From Pseudomonas phage Presto, in sequence record PQ533662.1: a stretch of 64,000 bases of DNA; one strand, written 5' to 3'. Position 1 is the stretch's first letter; each line of letters starts with the position of its first letter. Of the stretch, positions 37,997 to 40,564 are shown piece by piece. Made by a program: the position numbers and the translations under genes. The notes under the pieces are model-generated. The model did no database searches. It was given only the letters and a program-made list of their open reading frames with translations, and had not been told where the DNA came from.

Positions 37997-38414
37997 CGGG
38001 ATTCTCCCGTTTGTAGTAGCTGAAAGGCGGAGTTGCTGGGGTGAGGAGGGCTTCCTCGAGCGGCATGCCTCCGGCGAGCCGCCTGCGGACGGTGCTAGCC
38101 GAGACAGGGCTCGGCAGCGTCTCCACCAGTTCCTCTATGGTTCCGGTCCTGCCGCGAACGGTGTGGGTGTGTTTGTCCTTGCGTGCCTGGCGGGCCTGGT
38201 CCAGCGCGCGGGCGAGTGCTGGCGTGCAGTGGCCCCGTTTCTGCGAGTTGGCCCGCTTGTGGTCCAGTGACTGGCCCTTCGCCGGCCACTCGATATCCGG
38301 CATCAGGGTCAACATTTCGCGGAAGACCCAGGGGCCAATGCCCAGGGCTAGCCGGGTGGCGCGGCGGGAAAACCCGCGCGCGGCGGACTCCCGGATGAAC
38401 TGCTCAGTGTTCAT
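37983..38414 (-). CDS. Putative DNA-binding early protein (about 143 aa)
   Basis: ATG at 38414 (MNTEQFIRESAARGFSRRATRLALGIGPWVFREML... is HTH-like). Overlaps the MTase stop by 4 bp. Confidence 0.45.
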   Translation of the reverse strand: MNTEQFIRESAARGFSRRATRLALGIGPWVFREMLTLMPDIEWPAKGQSLDHKRANSQKRGHCTPALARALDQARQARKDKHTHTVRGRTGTIEELVETLPSPVSASTVRRRLAGGMPLEEALLTPATPPFSYYKRENPDDQE

Positions 38415-40564
38415 GCTGCCACCGCCTGTTGCGGCGTCGGCCGTAGCCGCCGCTTCCATGGGTCGTTTGCCCGGGCGTATGCGGCCATCGTGTTCGGGCT
38501 CACGCTGTTGCCGCACATGTGGACCTGCTGGGATAGAGTGAACCGCTGCCCGTTGTGGCCCCGCTCGATGATGTAGCTGTCGGGGAAGCCCTGGGCGCGA
38601 TACAACTCACGCGGTTTCAGCATTCGCAGGCGGATGTCGACGATCACGTAGGGGCTACCGCTGATCCAGACCGTGACCAGCGCCAAGCGGTCCTTGGTGG
38701 TGATCGTGGTCAGCGGATCGTCCAGCTTCGCCCACTGCCCGCCGGTCGAGTGGTAGCGCATAAGGAACGCCGACACCCACAGCGCGCCGTCCAATTGCTC
38801 GGGTGTGAGGCTGCCGGCGATCATTTCCGGCGTGACCAGCATGTGGTGACCGCCGGTTGCCACGGTAGGCGTCGGCTGGTCCGCCGGCGTGCTGCTGTGG
38901 CCGGTGGTATTCGTCACCAGCAGGGCGCTGACCAGGCCGTGGTGGTCCGTGCCGGTTTGCGTGCCCAGCGGTCCGTCCACCGGGGCGCCATGCGATCCTT
39001 TCCGCAGCGTTACCAGGTGTGCCGTGGCAAGCTGCTGCTGACTGCCCTTGTTCGTGATAGTGCTGATCGGGGCGTCGGCCGGGCGGCTGTGGGTGGTGTT
39101 GTAGCCCCCGTTGGCCTGGACCATGAACGCGGTGGCCACTCCGCAGTCAGCTTTCGCTGTGATGGTGTACATCGGCTCGGCGACCGAGCGCGGCTCAGTT
39201 TGGCCGGCGCGGCCGCCGACACCGACCAAGACCGCGCTGGCCAAGCCCAGGGCGTGCGCCGCGCCGGCCGGGCGCTTGCACTCGCCGCCGCTGGTGATCG
39301 TCGGCATCGGCTCGTCGACCGGAGCACCGGTGGCGTCGAACCGGAATTTCACCAGGTGGGCGGCGGCAAGCGCGTGCTTCACGCCGCCGGCGACCACGGT
39401 GCCGAGCGGTTCATCCAGTTCAAGGACGCGCGGAGCCTGTCCGTCGCGCTCGCCGTAGCCGACTTGGATCAGCGTCGGGGTGGCAACGGAGAACGCGCCG
39501 CCCTTCGGCCAGGCCGTGACGGTGTTCAGCGGCTGGTCAACGGGGTGGACCGCTTCGCGCGACCAGTTCGCAATGGGAACGATGAAAGGTTGGGCGCGCT
39601 GAAGCACCTCTTTCTCGATGCCCTTTGCGATCCGACGCATCGTCGCCTCGGCCAGCGGGCGCTTCCGGTTGCGGATGGACTGGCCCAGGTCGCTCCAGTC
39701 GATGCACTCGGCGGCCGTGCGGTACGGTTTCATGCCCTTGGCCGGCGTTGCGGCGTGCGTCTTCACTGGCGCCGCAGGCTCGTAACCGTCGGCGACGGCC
39801 ACCATGTACAGCCGCTGGCGGCTGGTCGGGTCGCCATAGTCGCAGTTGCGCTCGATCCAGTATTCCAGGGTGTAGCCCAGGCCGCGCAGCACTTCGCAGA
39901 AGTGCGCCCAGCTGCGGCCCTTCGGTTGTCCGTGGCGCGCGAACTTGCAGCGGCGTTTCCAGCGCCTGGCGCTGCTTCCGGTAAGGGCACCGGTGTCCGG
40001 CACAAGGAATTGCTCGTCGCGCGGCACGCGCTCGCCGGGCTGTGCAACGGTGCCGTCGAGCTTCACCACGCGGCCCGTGGCTTTGTCGCGCTTCGCGATC
40101 AGCGGCCCCCACTGGAGTATTTGCTTCACGTTCTCGAGGCTGATGACCCACGGGCCTTTCCCGTGACGACGCAGCTTGCCGGCCCACTTCGGCACGACCC
40201 ACGACAAGTCGCGGATCTCCTTTTTGCGCGGCTGGCCACCGGCTGCTTGGCTGTGGTGCCGGCAGTCAGGCGAAGCGTGCAGCCAGGCAACGATCTTGCC
40301 GCCGGTGCTTTCGAGGGGATCCACGCCCCATACGTCGGTCTGGTAGTGCTCGGCGTGGGGATGGTTGGCCATGTGCATGCTGATTGCGGCCGGGTTGTGG
40401 TTGATTGCCAGGTCGACCTTGCGGCCCAGACCCATTTCCAGCCCGGTGCTGGCACCGCCGCCGCCGGCGAACAGGTCGACGATGATCGCGTCGTCGGTAT
40501 CGTCCAGGGCCAGGCCATACTGCGTCTTGAAATCAAAAACTTGCTTTTTCAGAGCTGCGCTCAT
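38411..40564 (-). CDS. DNA (cytosine-5) methyltransferase with an internally repetitive target-recognition region (717 aa)
   Basis: Motif I DLFAGGGGAS, PC motif ASPDC, ENV (VISLENV), QRR-like (TSRQRLYMVAV) and motif X MCGNSVSP. Between motifs VIII and IX there are about 400 aa with at least 7 copies of P-x-x-T-[IV]-T-x(6-10)-[LV][AV]xx[LFM][IV] (e.g. PMPTITSGG, PMYTITAKAD, PISTITNKG, PLTTITTKD). Confidence 0.8.
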   Translation of the reverse strand: MSAALKKQVFDFKTQYGLALDDTDDAIIVDLFAGGGGASTGLEMGLGRKVDLAINHNPAAISMHMANHPHAEHYQTDVWGVDPLESTGGKIVAWLHASPDCRHHSQAAGGQPRKKEIRDLSWVVPKWAGKLRRHGKGPWVISLENVKQILQWGPLIAKRDKATGRVVKLDGTVAQPGERVPRDEQFLVPDTGALTGSSARRWKRRCKFARHGQPKGRSWAHFCEVLRGLGYTLEYWIERNCDYGDPTSRQRLYMVAVADGYEPAAPVKTHAATPAKGMKPYRTAAECIDWSDLGQSIRNRKRPLAEATMRRIAKGIEKEVLQRAQPFIVPIANWSREAVHPVDQPLNTVTAWPKGGAFSVATPTLIQVGYGERDGQAPRVLELDEPLGTVVAGGVKHALAAAHLVKFRFDATGAPVDEPMPTITSGGECKRPAGAAHALGLASAVLVGVGGRAGQTEPRSVAEPMYTITAKADCGVATAFMVQANGGYNTTHSRPADAPISTITNKGSQQQLATAHLVTLRKGSHGAPVDGPLGTQTGTDHHGLVSALLVTNTTGHSSTPADQPTPTVATGGHHMLVTPEMIAGSLTPEQLDGALWVSAFLMRYHSTGGQWAKLDDPLTTITTKDRLALVTVWISGSPYVIVDIRLRMLKPRELYRAQGFPDSYIIERGHNGQRFTLSQQVHMCGNSVSPNTMAAYARANDPWKRRLRPTPQQAVAA

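Follow-up and report, generated by a model that had tools for sequence, protein, structure and literature searches.

A probable multispecific C5-cytosine methyltransferase with eight tandem modules in Pseudomonas phage Presto

The methylase gene and its catalytic core

Multispecific cytosine methyltransferases are a textbook curiosity, and no structure, to our knowledge, has ever shown the way in which a single catalytic cleft is shared by several recognition domains. Here we describe a C5-cytosine DNA methyltransferase (C5-MTase) gene found in a 64,000-nucleotide stretch of Pseudomonas phage Presto (record PQ533662.1; hereafter the window), the product of which carries a long series of tandem modules between its catalytic motifs VIII and IX. 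Judging from its sequence and from those of its relatives, it is rather likely that this methylase is a multispecific enzyme with several target-recognition domains (TRDs), which would modify several target sequences and protect the phage DNA against several restriction systems after induction. The gene and its catalytic motifs are located in the window as follows:

38411..40564, minus strand: C5-cytosine DNA methyltransferase gene, 717 residues, complete, orphan; assigned from its open reading frame (ORF), Pfam, PHROG, identity to a protein of phage Meadow, and AlphaFold2 (AF2) with Foldseek
40448..40477, minus strand: motif I, DLFAGGGGAS, residues 30-39, the S-adenosylmethionine (AdoMet)-binding loop; aligns with motif I of 3g7u and 8yf3
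40250..40276, minus strand: motif IV, ASPDCRHHS, residues 97-105, with the catalytic Cys101; placed by alignment to solved enzymes
40127..40138, minus strand: motif VI, LENV, residues 143-146; E144, N145 and V146 invariant
39794..39832, minus strand: motif VIII, DPTSRQRLYMVAV, residues 245-257; aligned to PTIRTRYFFIGV of 3g7u and to 8yf3
38573..38629, minus strand: motif IX, LRMLKPRELYRAQGFPDSY, residues 646-664; aligned with HhaI 266-287 (RKLHPRECARVMGYPDSY) and with 3g7u
38492..38515, minus strand: motif X, CGNSVSPN, residues 684-691 (GNSVSP at 685-690); N686 invariant; aligns with HhaI, 3g7u and 8yf3

The protein matches the Pfam family PF00145 (C-5 cytosine DNA methylase; E 7.6e-21) in three separate stretches, because a long insert splits the methylase, and it also matches phrog_23072 (E 4e-103) and phrog_116 (E 1e-92), both of which are annotated as DNA methyltransferase. 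Motifs I, IV, VI, VIII, IX and X are all present and stand in the canonical order of C5-MTases. The original prediction, made from the sequence alone, had listed motifs I, IV (PDC), VI (ENV), VIII and X; each of these was found intact, and motif IX can be added to them. An alignment of 112 diverse family members shows no variation at residues P99, C101, E144, N145, V146, R249, R251 and N686, and F32 and G34-G37 of motif I are nearly invariant. An AF2 model built with 112 diverse sequences reached a predicted local distance difference test (pLDDT) score above 90 for most of residues 30-290 and for residues 650-700, and of ~85 for residues 290-330. The 50 best PDB matches listed for this model by Foldseek all have the C5-MTase fold (including 3g7u, DNMT1, HaeIII and HhaI), and the large domain is accordingly modelled as a class I AdoMet-MTase fold. 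The assignment of the methylase to the C5-cytosine DNA methyltransferases is beyond doubt and no sign of decay was observed; the protein is a complete and probably active enzyme.

It is very improbable that the protein is an inactive or re-purposed methyltransferase homologue, in which the array would serve protein-protein or regulatory interactions. Such a reading could draw on the score against TIGR00675 (59.6 bits, under the curated cutoff of 100.65) and on the unusual P-D-C of motif IV. However, the low score is explained by the insert of ~390 residues, which breaks the match into three stretches, and P-D-C, not P-C-Q, is the typical form of motif IV in this family, and in alignments Cys101 falls on the catalytic Cys of solved enzymes, 8yf3 among them. 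The invariance of the catalytic residues, the pLDDT of the catalytic domain and the very large size of a family conserved in phages argue against it as well. The original prediction had itself allowed for an inactive or degraded enzyme, and the intact motifs, together with the catalytic residues shared by all 112 members, suggest otherwise.

Two further candidates were rejected. A carboxymethyl- or other non-methyl transferase, prompted by the match to 8yf3, was set aside, as the likeness is that of the generic fold only and no carboxy-S-adenosylmethionine (Cx-SAM) synthase gene was seen nearby. An antisense ORF of 703 residues (38555-40666, plus strand), which spans nearly the whole methylase gene, was dismissed as most likely a shadow ORF in coding DNA of high GC content (~67%). 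A separate observation concerns a segment of 21 residues between motifs VI and VIII (residues 192-212; 39929-39991, minus strand), which is present in the Presto methylase and a few alleles and missing from many Pseudomonas aeruginosa homologues; the catalytic domain therefore exists in two allelic forms. This segment moves the position of the module anchor described below from 322 to 343.

The module array and its natural variants

The interval between motifs VIII and IX covers ~390 residues (258-645), as against ~80 in HhaI. It opens with a conserved, non-repetitive linker, partly helical in the AF2 model (helix 306-321, pLDDT ~85), and continues with eight tandem modules that extend over ~305 residues (341-645) up to motif IX. 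The ~400 residues of repeats that had been predicted for this region were thus about right as the length of the interval, but its first 83 residues are linker and only the remainder is repetitive. The parts of the interval are:

39545..39793, minus strand: linker, residues 258-340 (83 residues), from motif VIII to the array, including AAECIDWS...RKRPLAEATMRRIAKGIEKEV; cluster C, family consensus with near-invariant residues
39425..39544, minus strand: module 1, residues 341-380, PVDQPLNTVTAWPKGGAFSVATPTLIQVGYGERDGQAPRV; module hidden Markov model (HMM) E 5e-17
39323..39424, minus strand: module 2, residues 381-414, LELDEPLGTVVAGGVKHALAAAHLVKFRFDATGA; from alignment, module HMM and conservation
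39188..39322, minus strand: module 3, residues 415-459, PVDEPMPTITSGGECKRPAGAAHALGLASAVLVGVGGRAGQTEPR; from alignment, module HMM and conservation
39083..39187, minus strand: module 4, residues 460-494, SVAEPMYTITAKADCGVATAFMVQANGGYNTTHSR; the least conserved module
38984..39082, minus strand: module 5, residues 495-527, PADAPISTITNKGSQQQLATAHLVTLRKGSHGA; from alignment, module HMM and conservation
38888..38983, minus strand: module 6, residues 528-559, PVDGPLGTQTGTDHHGLVSALLVTNTTGHSST; from alignment, module HMM and conservation
38729..38887, minus strand: module 7, residues 560-612, with a helical tail (…LTPEQLDGALWVSAFLMRYHSTGGQWA); type A, helices 579-605 in the AF2 model, family consensus AFLxKYYG
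38630..38728, minus strand: module 8, residues 613-645, terminal, KLDDPLTTITTKDRLALVTVWISGSPYVIVDIR; type B, conserved family-wide

In each module a loop leads to the anchor, D-x-P-x-x-T-[IV]-T, behind which come a second, short loop (Gly-rich or polar) and a strand of hydrophobic character, h-A-x-A-h-L-V. At least seven copies of a P-x-x-T-[IV]-T module had been counted before; there are eight, only five of which keep the strict pattern, the other three reading PLGTVV, PLGTQT and PTPTVA. The anchors follow each other at 41, 33, 45, 35, 33, 32 and 53 residues, and the earlier estimate of 40-60 residues is to be corrected to 32-53. An alignment of the repeats to one another, the check that the original prediction had proposed, supported them: 26 of the 28 module pairs scored z>3 against 300 shuffles (maximum 12.6), and the module HMM recovered all eight modules with domain E-values of 1e-7 to 5e-17. 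By alignment, shuffles and HMM alike, the variable region is made of several contiguous, non-overlapping units with a T-[LIV] anchor.

At the DNA level no tandem repeat was detected in the array by Tandem Repeats Finder (TRF) or by a direct-repeat search; the array is therefore old and diverged and not the result of a recent expansion, and recent duplication or an assembly artefact as its origin is ruled out. Only an anchor-coding stretch of 28 nucleotides recurs, at five sites between 38700 and 39543 with 66-82% identity (repeat family D1).

In the database, the 120 proteins closest to the Presto methylase (55-94% identity, 537-727 residues) come almost exclusively from P. aeruginosa, and each has four to eight modules. 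Modules were typed by average linkage and best-hit comparison; single linkage merged nearly everything. The resulting array types keep their order and comprise EHGFDIAB (the Presto methylase and most others), EHGFDJAB, EKFDIAB, EFDJAB, EHGAB, EKFDJIAB, GFDIAB, FDJAB and EHAB. Short forms are abundant: the EHGAB protein P0099 occurs on 56 contigs, including a chromosome of 7.3 Mb, so that short arrays are not artefacts, and the cluster of P0116 has 53 members. Relative to the Presto methylase, the deletions are module-sized and in register (M1+7 to M4+6, M1+4 to M3+3 and M5+30 to M6+28), a pattern that would be expected of recombination between conserved anchor-coding stretches, and the 28-nucleotide repeat could have been the substrate of such natural cassette deletions. 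The loss and shuffling of modules in nature is shown by these comparisons, and the abundance of variants with four to eight modules indicates, indirectly and on comparative grounds, that the units are individually dispensable or exchangeable; we refer to them as cassettes below.

Among the homologues of the same architecture (n=55), the modules are 83-97% identical to those of the Presto methylase (module 1, 97%), with a mean of 64% for module 4, and the figure for the N-terminal catalytic domain is 77%; purifying selection thus acts on the modules. The low conservation of module 4 may reflect two subtypes, possibly with diversifying specificity. Module 7 is present in nearly all homologues examined, bar a few partial or divergent sequences, and is therefore probably part of a conserved scaffold.

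These data also bear on a partly degenerate enzyme, in which few cassettes would be active TRDs and the others inactive 'pseudo-domains' carried along, as were reportedly described in Bacillus phage enzymes by the Trautner laboratory. Module 4 with its 64%, the anchors that depart from T-[IV]-T (TVV, TQT and TVA) and the length of just 32-33 residues of some modules could be taken as signs of it. Nevertheless, most modules are better conserved than the N-terminal catalytic domain, unlike decaying relics, and module types are retained in distant lineages, so that we regard this account as improbable.

The methylase belongs to a large family. When 1.84 billion cluster representatives were searched exhaustively, 7,200 relatives had E<=0.001, and 2,077 had E<1e-30; by tblastn, 343 phage records were seen to carry the family (Gordonia, Mycobacterium, Pseudomonas, Arthrobacter, Vibrio and others). 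The number of modules, as counted by HMM in the 150 best representatives (a list biased to proteins like that of Presto), ranges from 1 to 12 with a median of ~7. Protein length grows by 33.7 residues per module from an intercept of 433 residues. Eight modules are hence typical of the family, and the array that had been called unusually large is so only when set against the few characterised enzymes. Reuse of cassettes is observed family-wide: counterparts of the Presto modules are 55-76% identical in representatives that are 41-58% identical overall, often at another position of the array (63-69% in distant proteins for module 1), and 1008 of 1011 modules find a better match in another protein than within their own. 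At 393 and 465 residues, the smallest members that are complete have one variable module and the terminal TTKDRxxLVTV module; an enzyme of monospecific size thus needs no more than one variable module. The gene of the 393-residue member (P0190) lies directly upstream of a Phage_integrase-family gene of 201 residues on metagenome contigs of ~2 kb, with overlapping stop and start codons.

Proposed role and genomic setting

We propose that one catalytic core, made up of motifs I-VIII and IX-X, would bind AdoMet and would flip and methylate the target cytosine, and that six or seven different minimal target-recognition cassettes of ~32-45 residues, followed by a conserved terminal scaffold module, would serve it. 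The cassettes would take turns at the catalytic cleft, each recognising a short DNA sequence of its own, so that one polypeptide could methylate several unrelated sites. The methylase would presumably be made upon prophage induction, from an early-left operon next to a CI-like repressor gene, and the progeny DNA would be pre-protected against several restriction systems. DNA binding by each cassette with a specificity of its own, the timing of expression and the role in anti-restriction are what we infer from the array and its surroundings.

Several results weigh against multispecificity. The modules are equated with TRDs by a short anchor motif, their size and their position, and some of them, with 32-33 residues, fall below the spacing of 42-47 residues of the Bacillus phage enzymes. 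When the SPR, rho11s and H2 methyltransferase genes were taken as the Bacillus comparison set, the module HMM gave E-values of 0.0004-0.1, which are not significant, and these for the last conserved unit only (DEPAFTVNTIDRHGVA, corresponding to module 8); hhalign of the modules against the Bacillus TRDs gave a probability of 7%, though with the anchors in register. Membership in the Bacillus TRD family at the sequence level is ruled out by these two comparisons. The literature searched contained no methylation data or targets for the methylase or any member of its family. Most of residues 332-630 stayed below a pLDDT of 50 in the AF2 run with 112 diverse sequences (the mean was 34 in a run with 45 close homologues), and a profile of 88 modules had no PDB relatives at E<=10; the full methylase and its C-terminal part gave weak PDB matches to the catalytic motifs only. 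Positional orthologues that resemble each other more closely than neighbouring repeats do are also typical of purely structural repeat proteins, and modules 7 and 8, found in nearly all homologues examined, might be the sole true recognition element.

Some of these points would be accommodated by an enzyme of single or relaxed specificity, which we consider unlikely, though it is the main rival account. The array would then consist of beta-hairpin repeats stacked as one DNA-binding platform, which would serve to hold DNA non-specifically, to make the enzyme processive or to read a very short target (a dinucleotide, for example), and only the terminal module or modules next to motif IX would be a TRD. 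In both AF2 runs the prediction, of low confidence, gives each module two strands, a short one at the anchor and a long one at the hydrophobic segment, in a hairpin-like arrangement reminiscent of a beta-meander. The near-constancy of modules 7 and 8, the family-wide conservation of module 8 and the lack of significant similarity between the modules and proven TRDs point in the same direction, and solenoid-type repeats also vary in number and show positional orthology, with which the 1008 of 1011 modules are compatible. On the other hand, the modules within one protein are very different from each other and yet distant relatives preserve each type, with 55-76% identity and at other positions, and natural variants that lack different subsets of modules, with no overlap between the subsets, are all frequent. 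Moreover, variable loops flank a conserved anchor, which is TRD-like and not what a uniform scaffold would present, and the member of 393 residues manages with one variable module, so that the extra modules are not structurally required.

Should the cassettes be TRDs, as the multispecific reading holds, this design would be widespread among temperate phages whose hosts are Gram-negative bacteria or actinobacteria, P. aeruginosa prophages of clinical relevance and therapy candidates among them. The cassette content would then predict which host restriction systems a phage evades, and thousands of arrays of ~33-residue cassettes would form a library for a TRD-to-sequence code and for engineered 5-methylcytosine writers. 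If six or seven cassettes work in the Presto methylase, it would have more specificities than have been shown for any characterised C5-MTase. It can further be speculated, with slightly less than an even chance in our estimate, that the 2,077 representatives (in phages of Pseudomonas, Gordonia, Mycobacterium, Arthrobacter, Vibrio and others) form a very large, unrecognised superfamily of phage multispecific C5-MTases with 1-12 shuffled mini-TRD cassettes of ~33 residues, each type standing for one target sequence; the anti-restriction repertoire could then be read, and re-engineered, from the order of the cassettes. If the cassettes are not TRDs, the protein would be a prophage orphan methylase of the ordinary sort that has a peculiar repeat domain.

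The methylase is carried by a temperate phage, as had been supposed, and the following genes lie near it:

34895-36196: integrase
36202-36417: AlpA-type excisionase
40561-41106, minus strand: HD-domain deoxyribonucleoside 5'-monophosphate (dNMP) phosphatase, YfbR-like (phrog_318, E 1e-77)
43169-43738, minus strand: dNMP kinase, T4 gp1 family (PF21448, E 2e-29)
44410-45075: S24/CI-type repressor
46593-49322: Prim-Pol

The gene is part of the leftward early operon of the prophage, which adjoins the divergently oriented CI-like repressor gene, and its start and stop codons overlap the neighbouring genes; the stop codon of the dNMP phosphatase gene overlaps the ATG of the methylase. Pseudomonas phage Meadow, whose host is P. 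aeruginosa PA14, encodes exactly the same protein (XLM27346.1, 100% identity), and the methylase of phage F116 shares 54% identity with that of Presto. No restriction endonuclease was recognised near the gene, the neighbours being the dNMP phosphatase and phage proteins of unknown function, and the methylase is therefore an orphan and not part of a Type II restriction-modification (R-M) pair. The presence of nucleotide-pool genes (dNMP phosphatase and dNMP kinase) in the same early operon as a C5-methylase is unexplained.

Beyond the integrase end of the prophage, a gene for an SOS-response-associated peptidase (SRAP; 32726-33415, minus strand; PF02586, E 2e-47) lies just outside, and the GC content falls to ~0.56-0.59 around 31-36 kb of the window. 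The Meadow record (PQ533659.1, 78.8 kb) reaches ~19 kb past the integrase and includes a 'Dam modification methylase' (16847-17650) and a pyocin R2 lytic-enzyme gene; the deposited 'phage' may therefore include neighbouring elements. No ORF of at least 120 residues was listed at the window position corresponding to Meadow 16847-17650, where the two sequences were not compared.

Comparison with known systems

In a 2025 review and the other literature searched, multi-TRD C5-MTases are described only for a handful of Bacillus phages, in which the design has been demonstrated experimentally; nothing on the arrays of the present family was found there. The principle is known; new are the different and much larger lineage, the shorter cassettes and the longer arrays.

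According to reviews and papers, tandemly arranged TRDs give the Bacillus phage enzymes several specificities. The variable regions of SPR, rho11s and H2, whose multispecificity is established by experiment, contain an S-P-T-[LI]-T-T anchor every 42-47 residues, behind which lie a loop with Gly and a short strand, and the conserved last unit stands directly before motif IX. The comparison with known multispecific enzymes, which the original prediction had recommended, thus brought out anchors of a like kind, but no significant match by HMM or hhalign; the proposed resemblance to multi-TRD enzymes holds for the architecture, the type of anchor and the behaviour of the cassettes and does not extend to sequence similarity with the Bacillus TRDs. 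As in the SPbeta group (M.SPRI, M.Rho11sI, M.H2I and M.Phi3TI), we find in Presto a phage-borne orphan C5-MTase with one catalytic core and an enlarged VIII-IX region of contiguous units of ~40 residues; in each unit, a loop with Gly and a strand come after an anchor of the P-T-[LIV]-T type, and the last unit, before motif IX, is conserved. The natural enzymes of both sets vary by the presence or absence of units in a fixed order. Protection against several R-M systems is reported in papers for the Bacillus enzymes, and the same role is proposed for the Presto methylase. The two sets differ in the lineage of the core, in the P-D-C motif IV and in the extra linker of 83 residues of the Presto methylase, in the number of anchors (eight, and up to 12 in the family, versus two to four), in the length of the units, which are shorter here (32-53 versus 42-47 residues), and in their hosts (Proteobacteria and Actinobacteria for the present family versus Bacillus). 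The Presto methylase matches the Bacillus enzymes in all architectural respects tested, without membership at the sequence level, and represents an analogous or very distant lineage.

HhaI and HaeIII recognise DNA through two loops (1 and 2) that flank a conserved T-L dipeptide. M.HhaI and M.HaeIII share with the Presto methylase the fold, the order of the motifs and alignable motifs IX and X, and T620-I621 of module 8 fall, by the register of motif IX, at the position of the T250-L251 dipeptide of HhaI. In contrast to the array of ~305 residues, they have a single TRD of ~80 residues. The best solved relative is 3g7u, a putative MTase of the Escherichia coli prophage CP-933R (sequence E 0.00096, Foldseek E 6e-11), which is likewise prophage-borne and orphan, but with 376 residues has the size of a monospecific enzyme and no module array.

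M.EcoGII and Mu Mom, finally, resemble the Presto methylase in the presumed strategy of an enzyme of a mobile element that is silent in the lysogen and guards exported DNA against many restriction systems simultaneously. They act on adenine with almost no sequence specificity, whereas the breadth of the Presto methylase would come from specific cassettes and be directed at C5 of cytosine.

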